A stretch of DNA of 37,509 nt, taken from Myxococcales bacterium. Its GTDB lineage: Bacteria > Myxococcota_A > Polyangia > Fen-1088. This document shows positions 8,365 through 28,599 of this stretch, piece by piece. Location of the stretch: contig PMLB01000125.1 of assembly GCA_003158735.1 (NCBI GenBank), forward strand, positions 22,877 to 60,385, written 5' to 3'. The notes beneath the pieces are model-generated. The model did no database searches. It was not told where the DNA came from and was given only the letters and a program-made list of their open reading frames with translations. The position numbers and the translations under genes are program-made. Within the stretch, counting starts at the first letter, position 1. Each line of letters opens with the position of its first letter.

Positions 8365-11057
8365 ATGGTTTCTCCCGACGGCCGGCGCTCCTCGATCTGT
8401 CCCTTTTCCAGTCGCAGATGCCGCCACTCAGGACCGTCGAGACGGGCCCGCGCCCGCACCTCGGCTGCCAGCAAGCTCGCGTAGCGCGTGTCCGCGTGGT
8501 CGGCTAGATCTCTGGGCGCGCCGTCCTCGGCCACGCGCCCCTTGTCCACCACAAGCACGCGCGGAAAGTCCAGGGTCTGGCTGATGTCGTGGGTGATGCA
8601 CAGAAATGTCGCCGTCGCCCAGCGCACCCGCGCGGCCTTGAGCAGAGCTTCCCGCCGCGAACGCTCCAGCCCGCAGAAGGGCTCGTCGAAAACCACCAAG
8701 CGGGCCGCGCCCCGACACACGGCCCGGCCCAGTCGCACCCGCTGGCCCTCGCCGCCGGAAAGCAAAGCCCCACCCGCGCCCAGCGGCGTCTGCAAGCCCA
8801 TGGGCAACCGGGCCAGCACCTCGTCGAGTTGCGCGGCCTCCACCGCGTCGCCCACCGCCCGATGCTCGCCATCGTTGCCGAAGCGAAGATTCTCCAGCAG
8901 GGATCGGTTCCACAACTGCACCGCGGGATCGACCCACAGGGTCTGGCGTCGCAGCTCGTCCAGCCAGCGCCCGCGCAGTTCCCGGCCATCGACCCGCACC
9001 TCGCCCACGTCCGGGCGATACCAGCCCAACAGAAGACCGACCAGGCTGGACTTGCCCGCGCCCGAGGAGCCCACGATCGCCACATGTTGGCCAGCCGCGA
9101 GAGTCAGCTTGTCGACCGCCAGGATCTCGTTGCCCGCTGCCTTGACGAGCACGTTGCGCAGATCCACCGCAGCCCCGGCGGCAGTCGACTGAGGAAGCGA
9201 GCTATCCTCCGTTTCGACGGGGCCCTCGGGCGCACCCAGCGGCTCCATCAGGCGCAGGGTCACGTTGCGATGCTGCGGGTATTGCTGGATCAGAAACGCG
9301 ATCTCCTGTCCCAGCGACGGCAGCATGAAAAGCCAATACACGATCAAGATCGCCCAGCCCGAGCCCGAGGCTGACATCAGGTAGCGGAAGACGAGGACCG
9401 CCGCCAGGCCGAATCCCAGCAAGCCCTGCACAGTCTCGATGATGACCGCCAGGCGCGTGGCGTCCCGGGCCGCGCGCGCCCACTCGCGCAGACGCCCGCC
9501 GTGCTCGCTGCGCAGGGCTGGCTCGGCCGTGTGCGCGCGAATCGCCGACAGGCCCAGCAGCGCGTCCAGGTAAAAGCGCGCCAAGCCACCGGCATGGCCG
9601 CGCATGCGCAGATCCCGTTCCACCAAGGCCGGCTGGAAACAGAACGGCAAGACCAGCATCAGCCCCACCAGCGTCAAGACCAAAGGCGCGCCTGACGGAT
9701 ACAGCCAGATCACGCCGGCGGTGGTGGTGATCATCTCGCAGGTCGCACGCACCAGCTGGCCACCCTGCCCGGGCAGAAGGCGCAGCCAGTGCAGAAGGTG
9801 CGCGCGCTCCGCCATGTCCGAAATGGGCCGGCTCTGGAAATAGCGATCCCCGAGCAGAGGCAATTTGCGCAGAAAGGCCTGGCGCAGACGCATCTCCAGC
9901 CGACTGCCCACGGTCCACAGCGCTCGTGCCAAAGGCCATTCGACCAGGAAGAATGCGGCCAGTAACACCAGCAAGGCACCCGCCGCTGCCAGGCGTTGCT
10001 CGAAAAGCGGCAGGCGCTGGCCGATGTCGATGGCGCTGCGAAAAAGCAGCGACTCCACCACGGTCCCGACTCCGGCCAGTGCCAACGCGGCCGCCATGGG
10101 CACGAAACGCAGCAGCCCATCTGCGCGCAAGAACTCGAACAACTTGCGCGCCGGACCTGGCTGGTCGTCAGCCAGCACCGCAGCCAGATCGGGTGGCAAC
10201 GCTTGCGCTGCGTGGTCCGCGGCCCGGCCGGACACCCGCAGCGCCAGAGCCCCGCGCAAGGTCAGCATGGGTTGCCCGTCGACCGGCGCGGCTGGGCGCG
10301 CGGACCAGAGAGTCTCGGGCACCAGCGGCGACTCTGCGCCCTGCCCCACCTCTTTCCACAAGCACTCGAAGGCCCGCGCAGCACGGGCGCGAGTCACGAC
10401 GTTGCCGCTCAGCAATTGTTCGACCGCCCGGGCGCAGGCATCGAGGGCACACAAGGGGCGCCAGTCTGCACCGGCCGCGGCCGCAGCGAGGCGCTGACCG
10501 GAATCACGCAAGCCCAGCCTCTGCAAACGTAGCCGCAGCGGATCCAGGAAGCCCGGCTCGCGCGTCCACGCCGCAAAGTCCGCCGCCGGGGCCGGCATCT
10601 CGTGCACGTACAAGTCGCGCAGGAGATCTCGCTTGCTCATCCAGCGCCGGCCGCGGCCCGGGTCCATAATCTGGACCCACGGCCCCACCATGCGCCACGC
10701 CACCACGAAGTGGGTCAGGCCCGAAGGCAGCCTGACCACGACCAGGGCCGGCAGCGCATCGGATTCGCGCAAGAGCACGTGCTCCACTGGCAACAACATC
10801 TGGCTGGCTTCCAGACCCAGTCTTCCAGCCAGATCCTCGAGTGTGTCGATGGACGACCCGTCGACCGTGGTGTGACAGGCCTCGCGCAGCCGACCGTAGT
10901 GAGCGCGAATGCCGAAACCTTCCAGCAGCGATTTCAGGGCTGCCGGCCCGCAGTCCATGGCCGAGGTCTGCACCACCTCGTGGGCGAAGAACTGCCGCCT
11001 CTCCCGCGCGCTCTCCGACTCACCCTGGGCGTGGTCCTCTGAAGCGGGCCTGCTCAT
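8361..11057 (-). CDS. Peptidase C39-containing ABC transporter (PCAT; bacteriocin/RiPP processing-export)
   Basis: C39 motifs QTSAMDCGPAAL, THFVV and IMDPG (Cys-His-Asp). TM domain. NBD motifs GSSGAGKS, LSGGE, VFDEP, ITHD. Confidence 0.92.
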   Translation of the reverse strand: MSRPASEDHAQGESESARERRQFFAHEVVQTSAMDCGPAALKSLLEGFGIRAHYGRLREACHTTVDGSSIDTLEDLAGRLGLEASQMLLPVEHVLLRESDALPALVVVRLPSGLTHFVVAWRMVGPWVQIMDPGRGRRWMSKRDLLRDLYVHEMPAPAADFAAWTREPGFLDPLRLRLQRLGLRDSGQRLAAAAAGADWRPLCALDACARAVEQLLSGNVVTRARAARAFECLWKEVGQGAESPLVPETLWSARPAAPVDGQPMLTLRGALALRVSGRAADHAAQALPPDLAAVLADDQPGPARKLFEFLRADGLLRFVPMAAALALAGVGTVVESLLFRSAIDIGQRLPLFEQRLAAAGALLVLLAAFFLVEWPLARALWTVGSRLEMRLRQAFLRKLPLLGDRYFQSRPISDMAERAHLLHWLRLLPGQGGQLVRATCEMITTTAGVIWLYPSGAPLVLTLVGLMLVLPFCFQPALVERDLRMRGHAGGLARFYLDALLGLSAIRAHTAEPALRSEHGGRLREWARAARDATRLAVIIETVQGLLGFGLAAVLVFRYLMSASGSGWAILIVYWLFMLPSLGQEIAFLIQQYPQHRNVTLRLMEPLGAPEGPVETEDSSLPQSTAAGAAVDLRNVLVKAAGNEILAVDKLTLAAGQHVAIVGSSGAGKSSLVGLLLGWYRPDVGEVRVDGRELRGRWLDELRRQTLWVDPAVQLWNRSLLENLRFGNDGEHRAVGDAVEAAQLDEVLARLPMGLQTPLGAGGALLSGGEGQRVRLGRAVCRGAARLVVFDEPFCGLERSRREALLKAARVRWATATFLCITHDISQTLDFPRVLVVDKGRVAEDGAPRDLADHADTRYASLLAAEVRARARLDGPEWRHLRLEKGQIEERRPSGETI

Positions 11058-12244
11058 TTGTCTGGGACCGGTGCAGGGTTGGACACGGCGGGCGCGGCAC
11101 TGGTCTGGACGCTCATGAGAAACCGACCGGCGGTGTCCAGCACCAGGGCAAAGGGCGAAACCCGTTCCACTTCGACCTCGGCACTAGCCGGCAGGCCATG
11201 CTCCAAAGGAATGTTCGTCCGCTGCGGCGAGCGCAAGACCAACTCCACACGGATGAGGCCGTCCTTGGGCTCGTTGCCCACGCGATCCACTTCGGCCTGC
11301 AGCATGCCGTACTTGGTCCAGGGGAAACCGAACATGCGCAACCGCGCGCTCTGTCCAGTGTGAACCCGCCCGGTCGCGGTCGCCGGATCGAAGAAGGCCA
11401 CGGCGCGCAGCCCGCCGGTGGGAACGACGGTGCATAGTCGGGTGCGTTCGGCCAGCATGGCGCCAGCCCGCAGGTTCACCATGTTCCCTATGCGGCCGGC
11501 GATGGGCGCGCGAATCAAGTGCAAGTCGATCTTCTGATCGAGAATGCGCAGCTTGCCCTCGGCGTCGGCTTGCTCGCTCTGCAGGCGCGCGATGTCCGCC
11601 TGCAAACCCGCGATCAGGGCCTTGCGCTCGCTCACCTTGACCGCGCCCTCGTTGCCCACGCGGCCCACCTGCACGCGCGCGGCTTCTGTCTCGGCGTTCT
11701 GTCGTTGCACCTCGGCCTGCAGGCGGTCGCGGTCCAGGGTTGCCACCAGGCGCTTGTCGTGCAGCGACTGGATCTTGGCCCGCTCTGCTTCTTTCTGCTC
11801 GGCGACAGCGTTGGAGGCGCGCAAGTGGGCTCGCGCCTCGTTCACCTGCGCCGCACTGGCGCGCCCCTCGCCGCGCATAGCTTGCTCTTGCGAGGCCAGT
11901 TCTTCGCGCAAGGCTTCGATCTGCGGGCCCAGGGTTGCCAGTCGGCTCTGCTCGGCCGCGCGTTCCAGGCGGAATGCCTCGGCATCCAGCTCGACCAGAA
12001 TCTCCCCCTGCTGGACGTGCCGGTCCAACACCAGAACGCTGCGCAGGAGACGGGCCGCTACCGGGGAATCGACATCATAGGGCGCCGTCGCCACTTCCAA
12101 ACGCGCCGAGCGACTGACCTCGTATAGCCCCACCCGCGCCAAGAAAAACCAGGCCGACCACGCCGCCAGGAGAACCCCACCCAAAACGCCCGCCACGACC
12201 ACGCGGGAATTTGCGTCCTGGGCTCGTGCAAAGCGGGCAAACAT
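11054..12244 (-). CDS. HlyD-family membrane fusion protein
   Basis: N-terminal TM, lipoyl halves (VQQGEILVELD, IRAPIAGRI), a long coiled coil, and FPWTKYG. ATG 12244 follows a GAGGG RBS. ATGA overlap with the PCAT. Confidence 0.9.
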   Translation of the reverse strand: MFARFARAQDANSRVVVAGVLGGVLLAAWSAWFFLARVGLYEVSRSARLEVATAPYDVDSPVAARLLRSVLVLDRHVQQGEILVELDAEAFRLERAAEQSRLATLGPQIEALREELASQEQAMRGEGRASAAQVNEARAHLRASNAVAEQKEAERAKIQSLHDKRLVATLDRDRLQAEVQRQNAETEAARVQVGRVGNEGAVKVSERKALIAGLQADIARLQSEQADAEGKLRILDQKIDLHLIRAPIAGRIGNMVNLRAGAMLAERTRLCTVVPTGGLRAVAFFDPATATGRVHTGQSARLRMFGFPWTKYGMLQAEVDRVGNEPKDGLIRVELVLRSPQRTNIPLEHGLPASAEVEVERVSPFALVLDTAGRFLMSVQTSAAPAVSNPAPVPDK

Positions 12245-12731
12245 GAGATCCCTCGACTGTCGCAGCCCATGATACACGACGGGCGAGCGGAACGGATCAA
12301 TCGATGCCGATGGCCGTCACGGAAAGCCAGCCACGCTCAGAACCTACGGGAGTCGCACAGCGCCTTCCACGCGCCCGGGGCGTTCATGGCCCGGTCGTGC
12401 TCGGCTTCTCACCGCGTATCATAGACACCCCGGAATGTCCCTGGGTTCCCCATCTCCCGGCTGGGACATCAAATCCACGCTAGAAAGCCTCGGTAGGCAG
12501 GACGCGGATGCAGCCCAAGATCCGCGTGTGGTCACGGCGCACGACCTGGATCGCCCACTTGGGGCGTAGCCGCGCGGCGAAATAGCGCAAGGCCAGACTC
12601 GGCTCGTTGTCCAAATGATCATCGAAAATAGTCGCGACTCCTTTCGATACCAATAGAAGCTTCGGGCCGCCCACCCACATTTCCCCAGTGGTGACACCGC
12701 TGTCGTGCAAACCCCTGAAGGAAGAGGCTCC

Positions 12732-14342
12732 ATGAACCACCATTGCGTCGGCAAGATACTCCTGGGTCTATTTGCGATGCTGCCGCTCCTGGTCGCCGGA
12801 GGATGCGACTCGTCTACGTCGCCATCGCCCGGGCTCTTAGGCGGAGCCAGTGGCGGGACTCCAGAAACCGGCGGTGCGCCGGGAGCGGCAGGACACACGG
12901 CTGCTTCATCTCCCGGAACGGGCGGCGCGAATCCCGCAACCGGCGGCGCGCCGGGAATTGCGGGCGATACGGGGGCCGCTGGCGCCGCTGCTGGTGCCGG
13001 TTCGGAGGGCGGGATCGGCCCGGGTGGCGCAATTGACTCCGGTGGTGTGACGACCGAGGGTGGCGCGACGGAATCTGGCGGCAAGAGCGCGGGCGGGACC
13101 AGCGCTGGCGGCAAGACGACGGGCTCAGCCGGCGCGACAGGCAGCTCGGGTGGTGCGAAGAGCTCCGGTGGTGTGACTACCTCGGGTGGTGCCACGCCCG
13201 CCGGTGGCGTGACGGGTTCTGGCGGTGCCGGTGGCAAGACCACAGGTGGAACCGCTGCGGCCGGCAGTTCCGGATCGGCCGGCGCGACCGCCACGGGTGG
13301 TTCGAGGCCAGCCGGCGGAACGACGACCAACGGCGGTACGAAGGCGACTGGCGGTACGACGTCCGCCGGCGGTACGACAGCGACCGGCGGTTCGACGATT
13401 GTCATCAACCCCGGTCAGTGCGACGCAACCACGACGCCGGTCGCCAGGCACGGACAACTCAAGGTCGTGGGGAACAGAATCGTAAACCAGTGCGGCAGGC
13501 CGGTCCAGCTAGCGGGAATGTCGATGTACGACTGGTCGCAGCAGGGGCGGCAGTTCTACAACGCAGATGCGGTCAAGAACCTGGCCGGGACAGGAACGGG
13601 ACAGAAGAAGTGCGCGATACTTCGCGTTCCGCTTCTACCCACCAACTATCCTAGCCAAATGGCTCGGGTGAAGACCGTGATGGACGCCTGCATCGCCAAT
13701 GGTATCTACTGCATGCCCAACTGGCATGTGGTTGGCGCCAATGCCAACGCGACCAATGCGTCCGCGTTCTATGTGGAGCTGGCGAATGCCTACGGCAACA
13801 CCCCCAACATTATCTATGAGCCTTGGAACGAGCCGACAACCACCTGGCCCACCATCAAAACCTATCACGAGACCGTTATCGCGGCAGTCCGACCCATTGA
13901 CCCCGACAACATCTTCATGCTCGGCAACCCCCAATGGGATCAGCGCCCGGATCAAGCCTGTGCCTCCCCGATCACCGACACGACGAACCTGGTCTACGTC
14001 TTCCACTTCTATGCGAATACCCACAAGCTCGCCGGCTTCCAACCCAATATTGATAAATGTTTGAACGCAGGCTTTGCCGTCTTCGCGAGCGAGTACGGCG
14101 GAGTCTCATCCAATGGGAACGGCACCTTCAATGTGACGGAAATGAACAATTGGTGGACCTATTTGGATAAGAACCTCATCGGTTCTACCAACTGGGCGGT
14201 CGAGACCAATGGGGAGACGTCCTCTGTTTTCGTGAAGACTGCAAGCGCAACCGGCCCGTGGCCCGATTCCGATATTACAGACTCGGGCAACAATGTCTTT
14301 CCCTACATAGCGAAGACGTACGACCTCACGATGTCACAGTAG
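12732..14342 (+). CDS. Lipoprotein GH5 endoglucanase (subfamily 2-like) with a long Gly/Thr/Ser linker
   Basis: Lipobox LVAGGC, then about 200 aa of G/T/S/A linker. Catalytic domain has HGQLKVVG, IIYEPWNEP (acid/base), FHFYA and FASEYG (nucleophile). GAAGAGG RBS. Confidence 0.9.
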   Translation: MNHHCVGKILLGLFAMLPLLVAGGCDSSTSPSPGLLGGASGGTPETGGAPGAAGHTAASSPGTGGANPATGGAPGIAGDTGAAGAAAGAGSEGGIGPGGAIDSGGVTTEGGATESGGKSAGGTSAGGKTTGSAGATGSSGGAKSSGGVTTSGGATPAGGVTGSGGAGGKTTGGTAAAGSSGSAGATATGGSRPAGGTTTNGGTKATGGTTSAGGTTATGGSTIVINPGQCDATTTPVARHGQLKVVGNRIVNQCGRPVQLAGMSMYDWSQQGRQFYNADAVKNLAGTGTGQKKCAILRVPLLPTNYPSQMARVKTVMDACIANGIYCMPNWHVVGANANATNASAFYVELANAYGNTPNIIYEPWNEPTTTWPTIKTYHETVIAAVRPIDPDNIFMLGNPQWDQRPDQACASPITDTTNLVYVFHFYANTHKLAGFQPNIDKCLNAGFAVFASEYGGVSSNGNGTFNVTEMNNWWTYLDKNLIGSTNWAVETNGETSSVFVKTASATGPWPDSDITDSGNNVFPYIAKTYDLTMSQ

Positions 14343-17244: not shown

Positions 17245-18326
17245 GGCATGGTCCCGGCCAGCCTAAGCAGACCGGCTGTCTCCGAAAATCCGAACATGAG
17301 ATTTGCGTTCTGCACGGCCTGTCCGGCTGCCCCCTTGACCAGATTATCGATGGCCGCAAACGACACCACCATGCCAAGCCTGGCGTCGGCGGACGCACCC
17401 AGCACCACGCGGTTGGTTCCCACCGCGGCCTGCAGGCGAACTTCCTCGGGGGCCACCACGCGGATAAAGGGCCGCTCCTCGGCGAAATCGTCGAGCGCCT
17501 TGCGCACGCCGCCGACCGGGTCGCTGCCCCCGGTGCCGTGGCGCAACCGTCCGTACGCCGTGGCCAAGATGCCCCGCCGCACAGGAAGCAGGTGGGGAAT
17601 GAAGGTGACGCGCACATGGGGCGCGCCGCCCAAGGCCAGGGCCATCTCGATTTCAGGCGCGTGTTGGTGACGGAAAATTCGATAGGCGTGCACGTCGTCC
17701 GCCACCTCGGAGAACGACATCTCCTCGTTGGCCTTGCGGCCCGCGCCTGTGGTTCCGCTCTTGGCGTCGATAATCGCCGAATCCGCTTCCATGAAGCCCG
17801 CGCGCAGAAGTGGCAGCACGGCCAGCACCGAAGCCGTCGCGTAGCAGCCCGGGTTGGAAATCAGCCTCGCCGTGCGCAGTTTCTCGGCGTTGCGGGTGGC
17901 CTCAGGCAGGGAGTACACCGCCTCGGTCAGCAACGCTGGCGCAGGATGGGTAAAGCCGTACCACTGCGGGAACTGGTCAGCCGCCAGCCGGAACCCACCC
18001 GACAGATCCACCACACGCGCGCCCGCGGCCAGCGCACGCGGCGCCAGCTCGACCGAAACCTCGGCCGGCGTGCACAGAAAAACCACGTCCACCTCGCCCA
18101 GGTGGGCTTGGCCCTGCTCGTGGGTAAGGCAAGTCAGATCCGCCGCGGGTCCAGCCACGGCCAGGCGGTCGCCCAGACGCTTGCCGGCCCACTTGTCGCT
18201 GGTCGCCAGCCCGATGGAGAAGTGCGGATGGCCGGCCAGGATGCGGGCCAGTTCCATCCCGGAATAGCCGGAAACGCCGACGATGCCGGCCCGCCTTGGT
18301 GAAATGTCAACCGGGATGCTGCTCAT
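17241..18326 (-). CDS. argC: N-acetyl-gamma-glutamyl-phosphate reductase
   Basis: VGVSGYSG, DLSGGFRL, SNPGCYAT, KSGTTGAGR, HQHAPEI, IDNLVKGAAGQAVQNAN. Confidence 0.96.
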   Translation of the reverse strand: MSSIPVDISPRRAGIVGVSGYSGMELARILAGHPHFSIGLATSDKWAGKRLGDRLAVAGPAADLTCLTHEQGQAHLGEVDVVFLCTPAEVSVELAPRALAAGARVVDLSGGFRLAADQFPQWYGFTHPAPALLTEAVYSLPEATRNAEKLRTARLISNPGCYATASVLAVLPLLRAGFMEADSAIIDAKSGTTGAGRKANEEMSFSEVADDVHAYRIFRHQHAPEIEMALALGGAPHVRVTFIPHLLPVRRGILATAYGRLRHGTGGSDPVGGVRKALDDFAEERPFIRVVAPEEVRLQAAVGTNRVVLGASADARLGMVVSFAAIDNLVKGAAGQAVQNANLMFGFSETAGLLRLAGTMP

Positions 18327-18358
18327 GAGTGCACGTAATCATACTCGATGGTTCGGGA

Positions 18359-18820
18359 TCAACCGGTGTGTCCGAACCCACCGCCACCGCGCTGGGTGTT
18401 CGATAGCCCCGCCACTTCCTCGACGGCCACCTGAATGACCGGCGCAATCACCATCTGGGCCACGCGATCACCAGGCTGAACCACGACCGGCTGCTGGGAC
18501 AGGTTGACCAGCAAGACCACGACCTCGCCTCGGTAGTCGCTGTCGATGGTTCCTGGGGCATTCACCACGGTCAGCCCCGACCGCCAAGCCAACCCCGAAC
18601 GCGGACGCACCTGCGCCTCGTAGCCCAGCGGCAGTTCCATGGCCCATCCGGTGGGGATGCCCACCCGCTCGCCCGCAGGCACAGTCACCGGCCCGTCGGC
18701 AGCGGACGCCAGGTCCATGCCGGCCGAGCCCGGTGTCATGTAGTGCGGAAGGACCGCGGTCGGCCGCAGGCGGCAGAAACGCACCGGAATCGTACAAGCA
18801 GCAGAATGAGGAGAGGTCAC
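18359..18820 (-). CDS. dut: dUTP diphosphatase
   Basis: SAGMDL, RPRSGLA, PGTIDSDYRGEV, GDRVAQ, RGGGGFGHTG. TACAAT lies 10 nt upstream of the GTG. Confidence 0.96.
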   Translation of the reverse strand: MTSPHSAACTIPVRFCRLRPTAVLPHYMTPGSAGMDLASAADGPVTVPAGERVGIPTGWAMELPLGYEAQVRPRSGLAWRSGLTVVNAPGTIDSDYRGEVVVLLVNLSQQPVVVQPGDRVAQMVIAPVIQVAVEEVAGLSNTQRGGGGFGHTG

Positions 18821-18931
18821 GGCGGGAACGATTGTACTGCACCCGGAAGCCCGCGCCAGCCGACACGAATGGCAGTATCATCATCAAAGAAATGCCCACC
18901 GACCTCGCGGTCATTATGTCATTCTCGCTTT

Positions 18932-18959
18932 TCTGTAAGGTTGAGGGGCCTCGCGCTAC
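18932..18959 (+). promoter_or_regulatory. Candidate ECF-sigma promoter (module 1, autoregulatory copy): TGTAAG-N16-CTAC
   Basis: TCTGTAAGGT-N11-GCGCTAC, identical in both blocks and in spacing to 21647-21674. Confidence 0.7.
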
Positions 18960-18980
18960 CAAACGACGTTGGCCTCTTTC

Positions 18981-19559
18981 ATGCGCAAACCGCCGCCATC
19001 TGCCTCACCCCCGAGAGAATCCTTGGATTCAGTCGGGCTGGGCTCGGCGGATTCACTGGCCGAGCTGTACGATCGCTATGCCCCGCAGGTCGAACGCTGG
19101 GCTCGCCGGCTGGCCGGCCCACGCTTCGACGCCGAGGATCTCTTGCACGACGTATTTCTGGTTGTGCTGCGCCGGCACCACGAATTCCGCGACGAGGCCC
19201 GCATCACGACTTGGTTGTTTCGTATCACAGCCCAGGTGGTGCGCTGGCGGCGCCGCAACGATGTTCTCCGCCGCTGGCTGTGGGGTCTGCACGGACAGGC
19301 ACTGGCGGAATCAAGATCCAACGGCCCCACTCCCGTCGAGGAGATTGAACGGCGCGAGGAAGGCCTGCGCCTATACGCGGCCATGGATCGCCTGCCGGAG
19401 AAGTATCGGACCGTTCTGATCCTGTCCGCACTCGAAGAATCCAGCGGCGAAGACATCGCCGCGCTGCTTGGCATCGAAACCAACACCGTGTGGGTCCGTC
19501 TGCACCGCGCCCGCGCCAAGCTGGCTGATTTGCTCACCCAAGAGGAAGGGTTGCCATGA
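18981..19559 (+). CDS. ECF-family sigma-70 factor (module 1)
   Basis: Region 2 LYDRY...DAEDLLHDVF...TTWLFRI and region 4 LPEKYRTVLIL...EDIAALLGI..NTVWVRLHRAR. Alternative TTG start at 18969. Confidence 0.93.
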   Translation: MRKPPPSASPPRESLDSVGLGSADSLAELYDRYAPQVERWARRLAGPRFDAEDLLHDVFLVVLRRHHEFRDEARITTWLFRITAQVVRWRRRNDVLRRWLWGLHGQALAESRSNGPTPVEEIERREEGLRLYAAMDRLPEKYRTVLILSALEESSGEDIAALLGIETNTVWVRLHRARAKLADLLTQEEGLP

Positions 19560-20767
19560 GCGAAAGCAAACCCACCCCCGTAGTCCTGAGGCGTGATCGG
19601 GGACTGGCCCTGGCAGACGCATTGCTGGAGAGCAACCGGCGATTGCAGCCTTTGCCTGCCGCTGCCCATGATCGCGTGAAGCGCCGGTTGCGCGCACGCC
19701 TGTACAGCCCTGCGTCCCGACGCGCGCGTTGGCTGCGTCCAGTCGTGGTTACAGGCTCACTGCTGCTCTGGGGAACCGCGTTTGGCATCGCCATCGATCG
19801 CTTCGTGATCAAACGCGATTCTTCGCCAGGTCCGCAGGTACAACCAGCCTCCGCCCCTGACAACCCTCGCGCGCGGCGATCGTGGGCCCGGCCGGAAAGG
19901 CCGATCTTTGTCGAGAGCGATCGAACAATTCCCTCTGAGCCAGCCCTTCTGCAGGAGGTCGCTGCTCCGAGTGTTGAGCCGCCCGCGCCCGCAAAACCCG
20001 CGACCACCTTGCCGCCGCTGGCCGCCCCTGCACACCCGCGGACTTCACACGCTGCAGGTCCTGTCGCGCGTCCTGCTCCGACGCGCGTTGCCTTCACAAA
20101 TCAGTCTGCGGCGACCGTCCCCGCAGCCGATCGCGAGTCTCTGCCCGCAACTGGACCGACGACTCCGCCGGCCTTGCCAGCACCGCGGGCTGAGGCCGCT
20201 GCCCCTGCCCCTGTGGCCGCGGTATTGACCACTGCTCCGGTACCGCCCCGCCCGCCCGAGAAGGCGGTTGCGCCGGCGGAGAGTCTGAGCGAGGAGCGGC
20301 TGCTGGCCGCGGCCGTGCGTTCTCTGCGCGCGAAGCAGGATGCGGCTTCTGCCTTGGCCGCCCTCGATGTCTATCAAGCCCGCTATCCGCAGGGCCGGCT
20401 GTCTGTCGAGGCGACCGTGCTCCGCATCGACGCGCTTACCGCCCTGCACCGACAACCCGAGGCCTTGCGTTCTCTCGATGAACTCGATCTCGGCCGCGTG
20501 CCAGGCGGCCTTGAGCGCCGCCTGCAGCGGGCCGAATTGCGCGCAGCCAGCGTGCGTTTTCGTGAAGCCATCGCTGATTTCGATGGGGTGCTGGCGCAGG
20601 CTCGGGGCACGGACGCCATCGAGCGCGCACTGGCAGGTCGCGCCAGGTGCCGTCAGCGACTTGGCGATGGCACAGCGGCGCGCGCGGACGCCATCGAGTA
20701 TCTGCAGCGCTTCCCCTCGGGGCCGTTCGCCCCGCAGGCGCGCGACATGGCCAAGGTAGGCCCGTAG
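19556..20767 (+). CDS. Single-TM, Pro-rich, C-terminal TPR protein; putative anti-sigma factor (module 1)
   Basis: ATGA-coupled to the sigma gene. TM VVVTGSLLLWGTAFGIAI, a Pro/Ala linker, then EERLLAAAVRSL...ALAALDVYQARYPQGRLSVEA and YLQRFPSGPFA. The anti-sigma role is inferred. Confidence 0.7.
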   Translation: MSESKPTPVVLRRDRGLALADALLESNRRLQPLPAAAHDRVKRRLRARLYSPASRRARWLRPVVVTGSLLLWGTAFGIAIDRFVIKRDSSPGPQVQPASAPDNPRARRSWARPERPIFVESDRTIPSEPALLQEVAAPSVEPPAPAKPATTLPPLAAPAHPRTSHAAGPVARPAPTRVAFTNQSAATVPAADRESLPATGPTTPPALPAPRAEAAAPAPVAAVLTTAPVPPRPPEKAVAPAESLSEERLLAAAVRSLRAKQDAASALAALDVYQARYPQGRLSVEATVLRIDALTALHRQPEALRSLDELDLGRVPGGLERRLQRAELRAASVRFREAIADFDGVLAQARGTDAIERALAGRARCRQRLGDGTAARADAIEYLQRFPSGPFAPQARDMAKVGP

Positions 20768-20782
20768 AGACGGCCGGCCCTG

Positions 20783-21646
20783 ATGACCCCCGCATCGATC
20801 GTCGCTCTGTTGCTGGCGCTGCAGCCCCATGTGGCATCTGACAGTAATTGCCCGTCGGCCCGCGATATCGAGGACAACTTGTCGGTGTTGTTGCCCGCCG
20901 AAGTGGTCCGGCCGGGAACCGCGGCCGTGATCTCGCGCGCCGATGGGCTGGCCATTCACCTGCAGCCCGAAGGTACCGAGCAGAGCGAAGAGCGATCGAT
21001 CGCGGTTGGCAGCGGCTGCGAGGAGCGCGCCAAGGCCGCGGCCGTAGCCATCGCCACCTGGTGGCCGACCCAACCGGCCGCCAGGGACAGCACGCCCGCG
21101 CCCGTGGCTGTGACGCTTGTCACGCCAGCCCTGCGCCCGAAGGCGCGTGTCGTGACTGTGGCCGCGGGTGGCTTCGCGTCGCTGATCGCCGGCAGTGCGG
21201 CTCCAGGGGTGCGCGCGGAAGTAGCGTGGGCGCCTTGGGCCAGCGCCCTGGCTTTTCGTCTGGACTTGGCAGGCACTGGCGCCCATGGCGCAAGCCTGAG
21301 TCCTGGCCAGGTACAATTCCGCCGCATGGCCGGCGAGGCAGGCGCGGCCTGGTCGCGCGGTCCCTTGCGCCTCGACGGGGCGGCAGTCGTCAGCCTGGTT
21401 TTCGTCGAGGGACAGGGCTACGCCTCGAACCAACAGTCGAGTGGGACATCCCTGGGCCTCAGCGCCGGAGGCCGCCTGAGTTGGGCCCTGGGACGCTGGG
21501 CTCCCTGGCTGGAATTGCGCGGCGTCGCCTGGCCGCAATCGCAGCGAATTTTCGTAACTGACTCGGCGACCGGAACCCGCAGCCAGCACAGCCTGCCGCA
21601 TGGCGAGCTACAATTGGGGGCCGGAATCTCGGTATCTCTGCTTTGA
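20783..21646 (+). CDS. Exported protein with a Cys pair, Pro linker and beta-strand-rich C-terminus; possible small outer-membrane barrel (module 1)
   Basis: Signal-like N-terminus, NCPS...SGCEERAKAAAVAIATW, and alternating-hydrophobic strands ending LQLGAGISVSLL. Paralogue of 33127-34137. Confidence 0.6.
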   Translation: MTPASIVALLLALQPHVASDSNCPSARDIEDNLSVLLPAEVVRPGTAAVISRADGLAIHLQPEGTEQSEERSIAVGSGCEERAKAAAVAIATWWPTQPAARDSTPAPVAVTLVTPALRPKARVVTVAAGGFASLIAGSAAPGVRAEVAWAPWASALAFRLDLAGTGAHGASLSPGQVQFRRMAGEAGAAWSRGPLRLDGAAVVSLVFVEGQGYASNQQSSGTSLGLSAGGRLSWALGRWAPWLELRGVAWPQSQRIFVTDSATGTRSQHSLPHGELQLGAGISVSLL

Positions 21647-21674
21647 TCTGTAAGGTCTGGCGCGGCTGCGCTAC
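21647..21674 (+). promoter_or_regulatory. Candidate ECF-sigma promoter (module 1, target copy): TGTAAG-N16-CTAC
   Basis: TCTGTAAGGT-N11-GCGCTAC starts immediately after the upstream stop and ends 9 nt before ATG 21684. Confidence 0.7.
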
Positions 21675-21683
21675 TGGAGCGAC

Positions 21684-23882
21684 ATGACAACCAATAACTT
21701 GTTTCGTGTGATGGCGACGGTCCTTTGCTTCACTGCCGCGTGCAAGGGCGATTTCGCAGCCGGAATTACTGGCAGCGGCAAAGACGGCTCCGCACGAGAG
21801 ACGGGCGCCTTGCAAGACGGCGGGAATCCGAACGCACAAGAGGCTGCACCTCCGAGCAGCACTGGCTCGGTTTCCTGCGACCCATTCCAACCGACCACCA
21901 AACCCATCACGCTTACCAATGTGATTGGCGTTGGCCAGGACACGGACGGGACCCTGTATGTCGTCGATCAACCGCAGCCCGGCGGTGAGCGCGTATTCGT
22001 CTCGTCGGGCGCCACGCTGCAGCGCCAGCGCATTGCCGGATCGGGGATCGATGGCTACAGCTACACCTTCTCCATCAGTGATCACATTCCGCCGTTCACC
22101 CTCAGACTGGACACGAATACCGCGGGTCCCACAGCCATGGGCGTGCTGCTGGGAACGACAGACGGCAAGACCTTCACCATCGGCCAGCAGGGCAACGTTC
22201 TCACGCTGGTTTCCGCCTCCCAGATCGCTGCCATGCCCGTCGCTAACCTTCCCGCAGAAACCATCGTCGAATGCGATGCAACCATTCCCGACGGACGCGT
22301 TTTGTTGGTGGTTCGTCCTCGCGATGACTGGACTCTGGAAGATTTGCGTGTGTTCTTCGGCACCCAGGGCGACCTGATCGAGCGACCCGTGGATCACGTG
22401 GATCGGCTTATGGGAGGTGATGGGACCTTCGTCTACTTCACGATCGACGGTGTGGCGGCCTCCGCTACCTACCCGCTCACCCTGACCATTGGCACCACTT
22501 CGTTCCCCTTGACCTTGGTGCTAACGGATTCCCCGCCCGCTGGAGAAAGCTACTTCTGTCTCGGGAATCCATCTCCTGATGGTGGCGCTGATGCTTGGGT
22601 GCCGCCCGCAGACGGGCCGTCGTGCCGCGCGCCTTCGCCTGATTATGGGCCGACGTCGGTCTTCCCGTTCCTCCCCGATGGCACCCCGGCGGCAACCACC
22701 ACCTGCCCCGCGGCGTGCGGAGACTCGGCGTGGCCACCGGGTTTTTCGTCGTTTCCCAACATCGACATTGCGCTTCCCTACGGATCGTGCGCGCCTGGCA
22801 CTCCCTCATGCTCGACAGGTGCGACGGTTCCGTGTGCCTGTGCCCAGGGAACGGGGGGACCCGTGCACGGCTTCAACTGTAGCTGCGAGGGTGGCACCTG
22901 GATCTGTGGTATCCGTACGGCCGGTGGGGCGATGTGTATGCCGTGTCCGGACGCTGGCGTGAGTGATGGCTTACCAAGCGGAGACGGCGCGAGCAAGCCT
23001 GACGGGTTGAATCTCACCGGGCTGACAGCGATGACACTCACCGTGACCTGGATCCCGCGGACGTCTGACCCCCCCGGTGCGTGCCACACCGATACCAAGA
23101 ACGTCTATTCCTTGGACATTCAGACTCGGGTGCTCAACTGGGAGCATTGTGCAGTCGATCCCAACACGGCAGCCGCCTACCGCAAGACCGAGACCCAGAC
23201 ACTCACAGGCTACGAGGTGACGGCCGCGCGGATGCTGCTCGCCTTCCTGTCGACAAGCAACCGGACCCAATGTGGGGCCGACGCGGATACCGAAACCCTT
23301 GACCTGACGTTTCCAGACCGGGTCCAAAAATACCAAGACGACTTCTATGCCTGCAACCCGCCACTCGACGGTCGAACCTATATCGCCAACATCACATGGA
23401 TCAGAGAATGGTTGGGCCAGTTGGGCCAGAATATGAATCCGCTTCCCAGCAGTTTCGTGAGCCTGTCGGTGACGTCCGATCTCAACCCCTTTGCCAGCGA
23501 CACAGCGATGACGGCCGCGACAGCGGCGTGCGGAGATGCTGTCTACCCCACGTACGATGTCACCGCGGCAACCAAGAAGCTCAGCTGGTCGACCTGCGTA
23601 TCCAGTTCGACTGGCTACAAGCTGCAGACCGGCAATCGAGTCCTGAGTCAAAGCGAATTCGCGAGTGTCATGCAAAGCTGGTCGGCAATTCAACCCGGCG
23701 CAACTGGAGACTGCTCCACGCCGCGCACCTCAAAGGAGATGGTGCTCACGACGGCGCCGAATGTGCCTTCGGCTTACTACCTGAACGATCTCGCTGTCTG
23801 CAGCCTCTCCAGCTACAACGGCTCCATGCCCGTTGTCGGGTTGGATGACTTCTCGGCGCTGCTTGTGTCGTTGGCTCACTAA
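21684..23882 (+). CDS. Multidomain Cys-rich lipoprotein of unknown function
   Basis: Lipobox FTAAC, a beta-rich N-domain, a Cys-rich middle, and two tandem ~140-aa four-Cys domains at the C-terminus. GGAG RBS. Confidence 0.75.
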   Translation: MTTNNLFRVMATVLCFTAACKGDFAAGITGSGKDGSARETGALQDGGNPNAQEAAPPSSTGSVSCDPFQPTTKPITLTNVIGVGQDTDGTLYVVDQPQPGGERVFVSSGATLQRQRIAGSGIDGYSYTFSISDHIPPFTLRLDTNTAGPTAMGVLLGTTDGKTFTIGQQGNVLTLVSASQIAAMPVANLPAETIVECDATIPDGRVLLVVRPRDDWTLEDLRVFFGTQGDLIERPVDHVDRLMGGDGTFVYFTIDGVAASATYPLTLTIGTTSFPLTLVLTDSPPAGESYFCLGNPSPDGGADAWVPPADGPSCRAPSPDYGPTSVFPFLPDGTPAATTTCPAACGDSAWPPGFSSFPNIDIALPYGSCAPGTPSCSTGATVPCACAQGTGGPVHGFNCSCEGGTWICGIRTAGGAMCMPCPDAGVSDGLPSGDGASKPDGLNLTGLTAMTLTVTWIPRTSDPPGACHTDTKNVYSLDIQTRVLNWEHCAVDPNTAAAYRKTETQTLTGYEVTAARMLLAFLSTSNRTQCGADADTETLDLTFPDRVQKYQDDFYACNPPLDGRTYIANITWIREWLGQLGQNMNPLPSSFVSLSVTSDLNPFASDTAMTAATAACGDAVYPTYDVTAATKKLSWSTCVSSSTGYKLQTGNRVLSQSEFASVMQSWSAIQPGATGDCSTPRTSKEMVLTTAPNVPSAYYLNDLAVCSLSSYNGSMPVVGLDDFSALLVSLAH

Positions 23883-23978
23883 CCTCCCCTTCTTGAGGCT
23901 GCCCTCCCGTAGCGAAGCTGCTACACTTTGCGCCTGCCGGGCCCGGCGGCCCGGGAAATTTGGAAAGGGAGGGCACCC

Positions 23979-24899
23979 ATGGCTGAGAACAGGCGCATTC
24001 GCAAGGTTGTCAGGAGTCGCGCGACCATCGAGGGAGCGGGCGTTCATCTGCATCGGGCTATCGGCTTCGGCGATCCGACGCTGTGCGATCCGTTTCTTCT
24101 GTTTGACGACTTTCGCTCGGACAGGCCCGAGCACTATCTCAAGGGATTCCCCTGGCATCCCCATCGCGGCATAGAAACCATCACCTACGTCCTGCGCGGC
24201 GATGTCGAACACGGCGACAGTCTGGGCAACAGCGGCGTGATCTCGTCCGGCGACGTGCAGTGGATGACCGCTGGCAGCGGCATCGTTCACCAGGAAATGC
24301 CCAAGGGCGATCCCCAGGGCGCGATGTACGGCTTCCAGCTGTGGGCCAACCTACCCGCAGCCCAGAAGATGATGGACCCGCGCTACCGGGGGTTTGTCAG
24401 CGCCCAGATTCCCGAGGCCGCGCTGGCGAACGGCGTTCGCATCAAGGTCATCGCTGGTGCCGCCGACGGCGTAACCGGCCCGGTACGCGACGTGGTCACT
24501 GCGCCCGAGTATCTCGACGTCACCGTGCCCGCGGGCGTGACCTTCACCCGGGCCACGCCGCGTGGCCACACCGTGCTGGCCTACGTGATCGGCGGCAAAG
24601 CCGTGTTCTGCCAGCAAAGCGATCCCTACAGCTACGAGGCCGAGGGCGGCAACTACTTCGACATGGAACGAAGCGCGCAGTTAGGCGACGGCCACATGGT
24701 GATCTTCGCCGACGGCGACAGCGTGACTATCAAGGCCGGCGACGAGCCGGCGCGTTTTCTGCTGATTTCAGGCAAGCCCATCAAAGAGCCCGTCGCCTGG
24801 TACGGGCCCATCGTGATGAACACCCAGGAGGAACTGCGAGTCGCCTACGAAGAACTGCAGAACGGTACCTTCGTGAAGGTACGTGGCCGCGAAAAGTGA
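23979..24899 (+). CDS. Pirin-family protein
   Basis: EGAGV, DPFLLFD, GFPWHPHRGIETITY, HGDSLGN, GDVQWMTAGSGIVHQEMP, QLWANLP, YGPIVMNT. GGAGG RBS. Confidence 0.95.
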   Translation: MAENRRIRKVVRSRATIEGAGVHLHRAIGFGDPTLCDPFLLFDDFRSDRPEHYLKGFPWHPHRGIETITYVLRGDVEHGDSLGNSGVISSGDVQWMTAGSGIVHQEMPKGDPQGAMYGFQLWANLPAAQKMMDPRYRGFVSAQIPEAALANGVRIKVIAGAADGVTGPVRDVVTAPEYLDVTVPAGVTFTRATPRGHTVLAYVIGGKAVFCQQSDPYSYEAEGGNYFDMERSAQLGDGHMVIFADGDSVTIKAGDEPARFLLISGKPIKEPVAWYGPIVMNTQEELRVAYEELQNGTFVKVRGREK

Positions 24900-24972: not shown

Positions 24973-27900
24973 CTACTTTTGGACGTAGATGATCTTCTTG
25001 CACGACGAGGTGCAAATACCATCGACGCCATTCTTGCTTCCGCTGTCGCACTCCTCGGGGCCGTTGGGATAACCATCGCCACAGTGGGGGCCCAACTTGC
25101 ATTGCGGAGTGCAGCCACCGTATGAGCCGTCGTTCTTGCCGTCGTCGCACTCCTCGTTTCCATTCACGATGCCGTCGCCGCAGTGAGGGGCGAAGACGCA
25201 ACTCGGGGCGCAGCCACCGTACTCGCCGTTGTTGTTGAGCGACCCGTCGTCACATTCTTCGGGCGGCTCGATCAAACCGTCGCCGCACCCACCTGGCAGA
25301 CGGCACGCGTCGGTGCAATTGGGATCGTTCGACATGGTGGGTTCGCATTCTTCCCCGTAGTCCGTGTCAATATTACCGTCGCCGCACCTGGGAGCCAAGC
25401 TGCAGTCGCTCTTGCAGGTTCCGTAGCTGCCGTCGTTGACGCCGTCGTCACATGCCTCGTCGCCATTCGTGATGCCGTCGCCGCAACGCCCGCCGCGCTT
25501 GCAGTTCGACGTACAGCCACCATACACAGCGTTGGGATCGCTGCTGGTTGCGTTCTTAGCGCCGTCGTCGCACTCCTCATCGAAGTCGGTTTGCACCACG
25601 CCATCGCCACATCGTGCGGGCAGCTTGCACCCTGGGGCGCAGCCCTTGGCTGAGCCATAGTCGTCGCTGTTGATGCCGTTGTCGCACTCCTCGCCGTCAC
25701 TGACCACGCCGTCGCCGCAATAGGGTCCCCACTTGCACTGCGAGGTACAGCCGGTGTACGCGGGTTTGTCGTTGGGACCCGGGCAGCTCGCGGGAGCTGT
25801 GCCGGTCCCGTCGCCGCAGTCGCACTCTTCCCCGCCCGTCACCACGCCGTCGCCGCAGCGAGGCTGGCAGGCGGATCGGGTCGTCGTGAAACCACTTAGG
25901 GTGAGCTGGTAGTTCGACTCGGGCGGGTGCCGGTCAGCGCCGAAGATCGCGATCTCGTAGACCTTGCCGGTGACCAGCCCCAGCGGGACGGTGCGCACGC
26001 GGAAATCATCCCCGTCCTTGGCCGTCGGAGGCAGGGGGGTAGTGTTGGTAGGCGAACAGGCGGCTGAGCCAGCGGTGACCCCAGTGATGTTTCCTGTTGC
26101 GTCGAGGCAGCCACCTTCCGTGACACTGGCGTTGCCGCCGGTTAGGTCGCTGACCGTCACTTTTCCAGGCAACTGCTGGTGGACGCCGCCGAGATCGAGG
26201 ACCAGAACGCCATTGATGAAGATGAAGAGATCGTCGTCGCCGTAGAAACTGAGACTGATGCCTGCGGCACCGTTGTAGACGAAGTAGTAGCGCGCCTCAT
26301 CAGTGAAGTAATTGTCATGCTTGACGCCGGGAGTATTTGCGACCCAGCAGCCATTGCTCAGCGGATTCTGGTTTGGGCAATCCGCCTGGACCACGCGCGG
26401 TGGGAAGAAATACTGGTCGCCTTGGCAGGTGGCCCAGATGGCAACGCCACTGCTATGGTTCCAGTAGGGCCATAGGTCACATAGCGTGACCTGGCTGGGA
26501 TTCAGCGGGTCGAGGGGGTAGAAGCCATTGTCCGGGCCAGCTAGATGCGTCTTGCTGGCGTACTGGTAGACATTTCCGCCGATGCTGGTCATTTCGAGAA
26601 CGTCTGTGAAGGTCTTGTTGACCGTGTTGTCATCGTTGAACCACTGCTTGAAGCTGGCGGCATCTTTGAATGCGGGTGTCGTCCCCAACCAAACCGGGCC
26701 GCCCGGGGTGCTCTGGGTATAGCGGACCAGTGTGCCGGCAGAAACGCCAGCGTTGCCGGTCACGATGACAGCCGTGCCGATATTTCCGCCCAAATAGCCG
26801 CCAGCCCCGTTGGAAAGAGGACTGTCGTTGCCGGCCTGGGTGTAGCCGCTGGGGATGTGGAGCGCAGCATTGCCGATGTTCCAGTCACTGAACTGGCAAG
26901 CGCAGGTCGTCGTGGTACCGGGCTGCGGCTTGCCGTTCAACAGATTCGCAGCCACGATTCCCCAACAACGTGCGGTCGAGTCGTTGCCCTTGGAAGGACC
27001 GCCCGAGTTGGGAACACAGATGGTCGTGGGCGAAGTCGAGGGCGATTTCTTCGTGCCCAGGAAAAAGAAGTCCGGGTGCCCGCCGGGAGAGACGTTTTCC
27101 GGCTGGAAGTCACGGTAGGTGATGGGGAGTTCGAGGCATTGTCCTGAGCCCGATTTGCACGTCGAGGAGTCCTGGGCGGTCGCAGGCGGGCAAGCGAAGC
27201 CACCTTCAACCTTGCACTTCGACGAACAACCATCGAGGTCCACCAAGTTTCCATCGTCGCAATCTTCGCCTGGATCGAGGTTTCCGTCGCCGCAGGCCGA
27301 GGTACAGGCCTGGGTCTTGCCCGTCGTGGGGTCCTGGCAGCTCGGCTCCTTGGTGCAAGTCTTGGAGCAGCCCTTGCCGTCGCCATAGAAGAGCCCGTTT
27401 ACGGCCTTGCATCCGGTTGGCAGATTGTTCGGGTCAATGCCGCAGTCGCACAGCTCGCTCTTCTCCACAATTCCGTTGCCACACTTGGCCGTTGTGCAAG
27501 TCTGTCCCGCCGTCGGACAGTCAGCGCCGGGCTCGATCTGGCAGGTGCTGGAGCAGCCATCGCCACTCGTGGTGTTGCCGTCGTCGCACTGTTCGCCTTT
27601 GAGGACCTTGCCGTCTCCGCACTTGGCCGTGCACGCCTTGCCAACCACCCGACACTGGAAACCAGTCTCGACCGTCTTACAATCGCTCGAGCAACCATCG
27701 CCGCTGACCGTGTTGCCGTCGTCGCACTGTTCGCTCCCTTCGAGCGCGCCATTGCCGCACTTGACGATCGGGCAGACGCACAACTGGCCCGGGGTACAAA
27801 CGCAGCCCGCGCCCTTCATCTTGCAGTCGGCCGAACAGCCGTCGCCATCCTTCATGTTGCCGTCGTCGCACACTTCGCCAATCGAAAGCTGGACAACGCC

Positions 27901-28599
27901 ATCACCACATCGTGCGTCCGGCTTGCAGGGAGCGCCTGGCGTCGGGCAGCTCCAACCGGCCTCGACCTGACAAACGCTGCTGCAGCCATCGCCGCTGTTG
28001 CTGTTGCCGTCGTCGCACTTTTCGCCCGATTCGATACGCTTGTTGCCACACTGGGAAACCAGGGTGCAAGGTTGTCCGGGGACACATTTGTAGCGGGGGT
28101 CCTGCACGGTGCAGGTAGAATTGCAGCCGTCGTTGTCGAGAGTGTTGCCATCGTCGCAGACCTCACCCGCGCCGACGACTTTGTCGCCACAGATGACCAG
28201 TCGCTGGCAGGCCCCCGCGGGCGGACATTTCCAGTGGGGCTCGACCTTGCAGGCACCATTGCACCCATCGCCGGGCAAGGCGTTTCCGTCGTCACACTCC
28301 TCGATGCCATTCTGATTGTTGATTCCATCGCCGCAGGCCTCAGGATACTCGGCCTTGCAGCCCAGAGTGCTGTCGCTGTTGCAGACCCCAGAGCCGCTCG
28401 TCGTCGTCGTGCCGCCGGACGAGGAGGCGATGGTCGAGATGATGTTTCCACCGAGCGCTCCGGCCGCGCCAGAATTCCCACCTCCCACGCCTCCCCCACC
28501 GCCTCGCGCACCTCCGTTGTTTTCTACCTCCGAGCTGTTACAGGCAGCTGCCGCCAACACAAAAAGGAACATTGCATGGCCGGTGTGGGCTGTATTCAT
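24973..28599 (-). CDS. Large lipoprotein with myxobacterial Cys-rich repeats (DUF4215/Myxo_disulph type) and a central fibro-slime (PA14-like) domain
   Basis: Lipobox LAAAAC. I count 8 CG(D/N)x..E.CD repeats before and 8 after a central domain containing [14 protein letters not shown]...[23 protein letters not shown]. Confidence 0.88.
   Translation of the reverse strand: [1208 protein letters not shown]

Follow-up and report, generated by a model that had tools for sequence, protein, structure and literature searches.

In the described extracytoplasmic function (ECF) sigma factors, domain 4 reads the -35 element of the promoter, domain 2 reads the -10 element, and most of these factors transcribe their own gene (PMC3817407, PMC7826278). 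Autoregulated ECF operons such as those of Bacillus subtilis sigW and Escherichia coli sigE combine a two-domain sigma factor with a membrane anti-sigma factor encoded by the next (+1) gene, and their bipartite promoter, with a rigid spacer of 16 nucleotides (nt), stands before the sigma gene and again before the targets (PMC7826278, PMC3817407). Here we describe a locus that resembles them in these respects, in a 37,509-nt stretch of DNA (the window) from a Myxococcales bacterium (assembly GCA_003158735.1, contig PMLB01000125.1, positions 22,877-60,385 of the forward strand). A two-part motif occurs upstream of an ECF sigma factor gene at 18981-19559 (sigma 1) and again upstream of a lipoprotein gene in the same group of genes (module 1). 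The sequence evidence makes it highly probable that both copies are promoters read by polymerase carrying sigma 1, the first (site 1) being autoregulatory and the second (site 2) an internal booster.

In kind, the module 1 feature is a standard ECF pair of autoregulatory and target promoters, and since autoregulation, shared target motifs and discrimination through the -10 element are already established for ECF sigma factors, nothing is overturned here. What appears to be undescribed is the lettering of the boxes, the make-up of the module (an anti-sigma factor with tetratricopeptide repeats (TPR) and an OmpA-like barrel with a two-cysteine N-terminal domain), and the placement of the internal promoter. 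Unlike systems of the sigW and sigE type, module 1 has boxes TGTAAGG/CTAC rather than the AAC/CGT types, its predicted regulon is minimal, consisting of its own operon with two sites per genome, and its second promoter would lie inside the operon, 9 nt from an ATG. Sigma 1 is only distantly related to the Bacillus factors, scoring 78 bits with the NCBIfam SigW model against a cut-off of 209.

Three other described systems bear on the comparison. The B. subtilis factors sigX, sigW, sigM and sigV are likewise co-resident paralogs with a common -35 core and two differing -10 positions (PMC5758882), the -10 forms in our case being CTAC, ACAC, GCAC and CGAT; unlike in that set, the -35 prefix here also varies (TGT, TGA, GGT, GGA), and some paralogs share both boxes. 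The clostridial sigI/RsgI sets, in which multiple sigma/anti-sigma modules are each autoregulated and drive extracellular enzymes (compare PMC6056542), are alike by analogy in that one genome holds many paralogous modules whose promoters vary from module to module and whose targets are secreted or at the surface, but sigI is not an ECF factor and a Pfam search found no carbohydrate-binding module on the module 1 anti-sigma factor. In FecI/FecR/FecA an outer-membrane barrel is combined with a periplasm-spanning anti-sigma factor and an ECF sigma factor, as in module 1, and this pairing makes a trans-envelope relay conceivable; the module 1 barrel, however, is small and OmpA-like, and a Pfam search of the module genes found no TonB-dependent transducer, FecR or Plug domain, so that module 1 is not of the FecIRA type. 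FecI-type sigma factors do not autoregulate (PMC3817407), whereas sigma 1 apparently does.

In the 2021 re-classification of ECF sigma factors, as far as the portion covered here goes, myxobacterial groups are found among ECF210, ECF216, ECF220, ECF267 and others, and promoter motifs are described as "not conserved" in the groups examined. The strings TGTAAG, TGAAAG and AAGGT do not occur in the part of its supplement that was searched, although absence there is no proof. Titles and abstract openings from part of the literature on ECF sigma factors in myxobacteria mention no such module, which is limited evidence.

Two copies of one motif and their conservation

The motif TCTGTAAGGT-N11-GCGCTAC is found exactly at 18932-18959 and at 21647-21674, both on the plus strand, with its half-sites at 18932-18941 and 18953-18959 in the first copy and at 21647-21656 and 21668-21674 in the second. 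Beyond the 17 fixed positions and the common 11-nt gap, two of the 11 spacer positions also agree, giving 19 identities in 28. Direct reading of the window thus bears out the initial annotation, which had claimed 17 identical positions with identical spacing before the sigma gene and before the lipoprotein gene. Taken as an ECF promoter, site 1 has its predicted -35 element TGTAAGGT at 18934-18941 and its predicted -10 element GCGCTAC at 18953-18959 (core CTAC, 18956-18959), and it ends 21 nt before the sigma 1 ATG. A TGTAAG-N16-CTAC arrangement at this distance from an ECF sigma gene, by both position and geometry, argues for autoregulation. Site 2 has its predicted -35 element at 21649-21656 and its CTAC core at 21671-21674. 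It falls within the 37-nt gap between a gene for a 287-amino-acid (aa) protein and the gene for the 732-aa lipoprotein, beginning immediately after the stop codon of the former; the -10 element lies 9 nt from the lipoprotein ATG, with GGAG at 21676-21679 in between. Downstream of site 1 there is an in-frame TTG at 18969-18971, which follows the -10 element by the same 9 nt as the ATG follows that of site 2. All seven orthologous regions keep this TTG at a constant 12 nt ahead of the ATG, and it may be a mark of the start region or an alternative start codon.

With up to three mismatches allowed, the two sites are the sole matches in the window, and 100 dinucleotide-preserving shuffles of the window gave a mean of 0.07 matches, none of the 100 reaching two. 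The same search of the window's own genome (G000; 6,494,936 bases in 467 contigs, 82.4% complete) returned 12 matches, the two window sites with no mismatch and the ten others all with three; because the reversed pattern gave 19 matches in this genome, we consider those ten to be background. The genome contains exactly two copies of a shorter core, TGTAAGGT-N13/14-GCTAC, and none of its reversed control. Shuffles and genome counts rule out chance or a simple repeat as the origin of the motif, and a repeat search listed no longer duplication in which the sites would lie. Because the two sites themselves served to define the pattern, these counts are post hoc, and independent support comes from conservation in other genomes.

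We considered 11 genomes of the same genus (G000 to G010). These are kin, so that the pattern they show is consistent but does not amount to a statistical test, and the counts overstate independence. Both sites are present in all seven genomes with a sigma 1 ortholog at 82% identity or more. In addition to G000, these are G009 (96%), G001 (90%), G005 and G007 (82% each), in which the whole module is syntenic, and G010 and G002 (84% each). Genome-wide, the core motif matches twice each in G009, G005, G007 and G002 (best sigma factor the sigma 1 ortholog, 82-96% identical) and once each in G001 and G010 (orthologs of 90% and 84%), where the other copy carries a substitution. It is absent from all four genomes without an ortholog (G003, G004, G006 and G008, zero matches each), in which the best sigma factor is 53-55% identical, the level of a paralog. 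G008 has a lipoprotein homolog of 55% identity, yet the region upstream of it is different and has no motif. When 61 related genomes were searched for the lipoprotein, its homologs proved to lie mainly within the genus, where nine of ten congeners have one.

Among the five genomes aligned at site 1, TTCTGTAAGGT and CGCGCTAC are invariant (5/5), whereas no alignment is possible over the 60 nt upstream; some spacer positions vary, N16 being extended by one nucleotide (N17) in G005. Site 1 therefore has what marks an ECF autoregulatory promoter, a -35/-10 pair that orthologs conserve, at a fixed spacing, directly ahead of the sigma gene. In the six genomes aligned at site 2, GTAAGGT, GCTAC and TGGAG are unchanged throughout, as is the spacing of 9 nt to the ATG, and six of 13 spacer positions vary. 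The -35 element of site 2 has one substitution in G001 (GGTAAGGT) and one in G010 (TGTAAGAT). Behind site 2, the promoter and the signal peptide (MTTNNLFRVMATVL.FTAAC) are kept in six congeners and the mature part of the lipoprotein has been rebuilt (loci L010, L011, L027, L026 and L024): G000 and G009 have an N-domain and a private C-domain, G001 the N-domain with Kelch repeats, G005 two tandem N-domains, and G007 and G002 an unrelated N-terminal part with Kelch-like repeats.

Position, -35/-10 geometry, conservation and presence only with the sigma ortholog all fit, and on these grounds both copies behave as promoter boxes. The proposal that the 732-aa lipoprotein is the target of sigma 1 has gained support of a computational kind, as its gene lies behind the sole other occurrence of the motif in the genome, one that is conserved and co-occurs with the sigma ortholog; the lipoprotein gene moreover comes fourth in the sigma operon.

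Module 1 and its paralogs

Module 1 comprises four genes on the plus strand, in the order sigma factor, anti-sigma factor, OmpA-like barrel and lipoprotein, separated by gaps of -4, 15 and 37 nt. Sigma 1 (18981-19559, 192 aa) matches Pfam Sigma70_r2 (5.2e-12) and Sigma70_r4_2 (6.4e-17) and scores 95.2 bits with NCBIfam TIGR02937 (sigma70-ECF, cut-off 42.9). With sigma2 and sigma4 as its only domains and a length of about 200 aa, it is of the ECF (group IV) type.

The next gene (19556-20767) overlaps the sigma stop by 4 nt, an overlap also seen between the sigma and +1 genes in 31 of 32 related loci, and encodes a 403-aa protein predicted to be a single-pass anti-sigma factor. Its chain runs from a short cytoplasmic N-terminus through one membrane helix and a Pro/Ala-rich linker to a periplasmic, TPR/BamD-like C-terminal domain, which is 48% identical to that of the gene after the sigma factor of the window's second such module (module 2, sigma 2); Pfam and NCBIfam gave weak BamD/YbgF-type matches below cut-off. 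In a model of the complex, residues 12-49 of the 403-aa protein touch residues 23-63 and 124-189 of sigma 1, that is, both of its domains. The score was 0.77 (best of three controls 0.01), the runs shared at least 86% of contacts, and the partner pLDDT (predicted local distance difference test) was at least 73; the mark applied is reached by 116 of 157 solved complexes and by two of 215 mismatched pairs. The 403-aa protein is thus predicted to be the cognate anti-sigma factor, clamping sigma2 and sigma4, although a sigma/anti-sigma pair is a textbook one and the model may have passed because of its likeness to solved complexes.

The third gene (20783-21646) encodes a secreted 287-aa protein with an N-terminal alpha/beta domain (about residues 16-93) and a C-terminal small beta-barrel of the OmpA/OmpX/OmpW type. 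Its AlphaFold2 model (mean pLDDT 85.9) has barrel strands at 123-286, in keeping with the closed antiparallel barrel of 8-10 strands that marks small outer-membrane barrels, and Foldseek against the PDB returned OmpA (1.7e-7), OmpX (7.5e-6, target-normalised template modelling (TM) score 0.71), OmpW (1.4e-4) and also NspA. No Pfam or NCBIfam model matched at E of 0.01 or below, so that the protein does not belong to a curated outer-membrane protein family; in the Atlas it falls in nameless Myxococcota clusters only, the nearest named one, OMP_b-brl, scoring 0.87, which is a lead. In an alignment with 29 homologs, a CP that follows the signal peptide (consensus SDS-CPS) never varies, nor do Cys23, Cys79 and Trp93 in the N-terminal domain, which suggests a disulfide-stabilised periplasmic domain mounted on an OmpA-like barrel.

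The fourth gene (21684-23882) encodes the 732-aa lipoprotein, the predicted target of sigma 1, whose signal peptide ends in a lipobox, FTAAC. Its N-terminal region (about residues 62-295), which is all-beta, and a Cys-rich stretch reaching to about 440 are common to its relatives, and the C-terminal part (about 443-732) is confined to the closest of them. The protein has no Pfam or NCBIfam match and no usable Atlas match, and its AlphaFold2 model is poor (mean pLDDT 50.4). An avidin- or lipocalin-like barrel fold was tried for it and set aside, as the best VIA-align hit among 48,161 chains (Z 6.9, root-mean-square deviation 3.1, 84 residues aligned) is under the meaningful level. Within 18300-24300 we found no sigma-70-type promoter (shuffles 0.9) and five terminator-like sites (shuffles 3.6), none of them in the gaps that matter. 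The lipoprotein gene is thus the fourth gene of the sigma operon with no room for a terminator before it, which would make site 2 an internal second promoter and not the sole link between sigma factor and target.

At least six paralogous modules are present in the genome, and many more in metagenome-assembled genomes (MAGs) of Polyangia. Besides module 2, a tblastn search of the genome found modules on C223, C57 and C46 and, more distantly, on C168, with sigma factors 49-55% identical, the same anti-sigma C-terminal domain and a 287-aa-type protein. The last is found in every paralogous module, its gene standing after the anti-sigma gene in module 1, C223 and C57 and before the sigma gene in module 2, C46 and C168.

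The earlier reading that module 1 shares with module 2 a TGWAAG-N16-tetramer geometry but not the -10 element also holds. Module 2 has TGAAAGGT-N14-ACAC at 33101-33126 on the minus strand, 12 nt before the sigma 2 ATG (33088), and TGAAAGTT-N14-ACAC at 34275-34300 on the plus strand, 19 nt before the ATG of a 589-aa lipoprotein gene (34320-36089). Module 1 has TGTAAGGT-N14-CTAC at both of its sites, and C46 likewise repeats its own boxes, TGAAAGGT-N15-ACAC. C223 has TGTAAGGT-N14-GCAC before the sigma gene and a -10 element of GGAC at the second site; C57 has GGTAAGGT-N14-CGAT and, at the second site, GGAAAGGT-N14-ACAT. In both C223 and C57 the second copy of the sigma-upstream boxes precedes the next lipoprotein gene, with 10 nt between it and the ATG. 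No second site was seen for C168 (TGTAACCT-N14-ACAC) or C111 (GGTAAGGT-N14-CGAT). The promoter of C111 (about 17998-18285, locus L038) is intact, and its sigma reading frame leaves the family after about 100 aligned residues, so that the gene is either a pseudogene or the product of an assembly error.

Scanning genome contigs with the sigma alignment yielded 80 loci, all from MAGs whose titles read Myxococcales, Polyangia or Polyangiaceae; in 36 of them a -35-like box stands no more than 170 nt before the sigma gene. When second sites were sought loosely (at most one mismatch per box, anywhere in the locus), 20 of these 36 loci had one, but reversed boxes found one in 17, so that the loose search does not discriminate. 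Nineteen of the 80 loci have both a -35-like box and ..AC upstream of the sigma gene; they contain 13 second sites, ten of which (in ten loci) are followed by an ATG 9-10 nt later, as opposed to none of the 11 sites found there with reversed boxes. Only the added requirement of an ATG at 9-10 nt, then, separates second sites from the control. Three of the ten loci are the module 1 orthologs of G001, G005 and G007, already counted above, and seven are further modules. The modules of C223, C57 and these seven loci share no target homology and repeat the second copy 9-10 nt before an ATG, a family rule that we count in favor of the promoter reading. The nine further targets inspected all start with a lipoprotein signal peptide; Pfam found one DUF4215 above cut-off and one VWA_2 below cut-off in them and nothing else.

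A predicted internal promoter and its alternatives

If both copies are sigma 1 promoters, site 1 would drive the four-gene operon of sigma factor, membrane anti-sigma factor, OmpA-like barrel and lipoprotein. Release of sigma 1 by the anti-sigma factor, on whatever signal it may sense, would then induce the whole operon in a positive feedback loop. Site 2 would act inside the operon, in its last intergenic gap, as a promoter with the same specificity and give the lipoprotein a private second transcript, and lipoprotein output would thereby be uncoupled from the sigma/anti-sigma ratio. In the open complex of Mycobacterium sigma-H, the -35 element spans -34 to -29 and the flipped master base is at -9 (PMC6411747). 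Aligning TGTAAG-N16-CTAC to that complex would place the last C at about -9, so that transcription from site 1 would start near 18968 with a 13-nt leader, and from site 2 near 21681-21684, so close to the ATG (0-3 nt before it) that the mRNA would be essentially leaderless. The GGAGG conserved at site 2 would on this account serve the read-through transcript only. An ATG follows the -10 element by 9-10 nt in module 1, C223, C57 and the ten loci, 13 cases that all use ATG as the start codon; both points fit a leaderless message.

Several observations weigh against this proposal. The GGAGG stands between the -10 element of site 2 and the ATG, and a start 0-3 nt before the ATG would bypass it; its conservation suggests that much of the lipoprotein is translated from a longer transcript. 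The boxes differ from the commonest ECF letters, AAC at -35 and CGT at -10. Site 2 tolerates a -35 substitution in two of seven genomes, which points to weaker constraint on it than on site 1. RNA data are available as assembled contigs, in which 5' ends, strands and levels are unreadable and uncovered parts are uninformative. Twenty metatranscriptome runs contain 7-19% of sampled words of 18700-22300, and the four runs that were aligned contain pieces of the module, some with no differences. Two RNA contigs cross site 2 (21562-21747, no differences, and 21604-21889) with no sign of a start, which fits read-through from upstream. At site 1, one contig begins at 18945, inside the site, and another bridges it from the divergent dUTPase gene; these contigs may stem from DNA carry-over or antisense RNA. 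In two runs, the contigs of a relative that is 4-6% different skip 60 nt, 18864-18923, a deletion that ends 8 nt before the motif and leaves it intact.

We considered the possibility that site 1 alone is active, site 2 being a weak or decaying copy and the lipoprotein being made by operon read-through and translated from the GGAGG. The arrangement is compatible with this, in that the lipoprotein gene follows the 287-aa gene on the same strand after 37 nt without a terminator-like site, contigs from the RNA libraries span that gap, and the GGAGG is kept 3-4 nt before the ATG, while the -35 element of site 2 is the one substituted in G001 and G010. Against it, six of six aligned genomes retain GCTAC as well as the GTAAGGT core, at an unchanged distance from the ATG, while six of 13 spacer positions change, and the analogous second copies 9-10 nt before an ATG in C223, C57 and the seven further loci, with no target homology, include some without a Shine-Dalgarno-like sequence (L042, L057 and C57). 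We therefore regard this explanation as unlikely. The motif might instead be read by another paralogous ECF sigma factor, through cross-regulation, or by a DNA-binding regulator with a bipartite operator. The genome has at least 25 ECF-like sigma matches, of which six are close paralogs whose -35 cores are almost the same, and the link between sigma 1 and the motif is a computational one. On the other hand, the motif is present in seven of seven genus genomes with a sigma 1 ortholog and in none of four without, each paralogous module has its own box variant before its own sigma gene, and the spacing and box lengths are those of an ECF promoter, all of which leaves a different reader of the motif very improbable. 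Promoters recognized by sigma 1 remain our preferred interpretation of both copies.

Sigma specificity and the wider family

The initial annotation had also suggested that the paralogous sigma factors are insulated from one another mainly by the -10 element, which in the present comparison comes down to the two variable bases CT, AC, GC/GG or CG before the final A-C/T. The sequences fit the suggestion in some modules, which share the -35 element and differ at -10, but not in others, which differ at -35 as well or share both boxes. Module 1 and C223 are of the first sort, having TGTAAGGT in common and differing just in CTAC versus GCAC/GGAC, and B. subtilis sigX and sigW set a precedent, their -10 elements being CGAC and CGTA and the regulon being exchanged when two positions are switched (PMC5758882). 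Five modules hardly vary in the -35 core AAGGT or in the sigma4 recognition helix: the helix reads T[VI]WV[RH][LV][HR]R[AG]R in the five AAGG modules, which fits their shared -35 core, and TVKVQLHRAR (W to K, R to Q) in one TGTAACC module. The segment that aligns to the sigma-H specificity loop is FRDEARITTW in sigma 1 and FRGDAK..TW in sigma 2, C46 and C223, and it is distinctive in C57 too.

Against this, modules 1 and 2 differ at position 3 of the -35 element (TGTAAGG versus TGAAAGG) in both copies of each and in relatives; module 2 and C46 have the same -35 and -10 elements and differ by 1 nt in the spacer; C57 and C111 have both boxes in common; and module 2 shares its -10 but not its -35 element with C168. 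Module 2, C46 and C223 have identical loop residues, yet the -10 letters of C223 differ. Domain divergence, taken as a test of the idea, gave no signal, the paralog identities of sigma2 and sigma4 being about equal; between sigma 1 and sigma 2, sigma2 (55% identical) is no more diverged than sigma4 (50%). Orthogonality as measured for ECF sigma factors is a joint property of both boxes (PMC3817407), and the paralog data fit a combinatorial code of this kind. By analogy a contribution of the -10 element to specificity is plausible, but that it should be the main barrier seems to us doubtful.

A broader generalization can be offered tentatively, as something we think possible rather than probable: that Polyangia have a large undescribed family of paralogous envelope cassettes, each combining an ECF sigma factor and a TPR anti-sigma factor with an OmpA-like barrel whose periplasmic domain bears a disulfide. 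In such a family an internal copy of the promoter 9-10 nt before an ATG would yield a leaderless lipoprotein mRNA, the promoter and signal peptide would stay fixed while close relatives swap the mature part as a cassette, and the specificity code would lie in -35 positions 1-3 together with the pair of bases that precedes the final AC at -10.

Other genes in the window were noted in passing. The 589-aa predicted target of module 2 is 26% identical to a 405-aa protein encoded inside that module (30481-31698, minus strand). Behind the 589-aa gene, 36133-37509 (plus strand) encodes a lipoprotein with a GH5 cellulase domain and the same Gly/Ser/Thr-rich linker, and a second GH5 gene is found at 12705-14342 (plus strand); there are thus hints that some modules control polysaccharide-degrading surface enzymes. 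A 1208-aa lipoprotein with at least eight Cys-rich DUF4215 repeats (1.1e-63) is encoded at 24973-28599 (minus strand), and the target of the C46 module has one DUF4215 repeat as well. Three genes at 6196-12277 (minus strand) encode an ABC transporter, a C39-peptidase ABC exporter and an HlyD-type adaptor, the usual export set for a double-glycine leader peptide or bacteriocin.

The conserved pairing of promoter and sigma factor described here concerns uncultured soil and wetland myxobacteria, in which regulation is almost unknown. With at least six natural paralogs in one genome, whose promoters differ at three to four bases, these modules form a compact test bed for how ECF specificity diverges after duplication, and the predicted two-site regulon and possible leaderless booster promoter are simple, testable design features.

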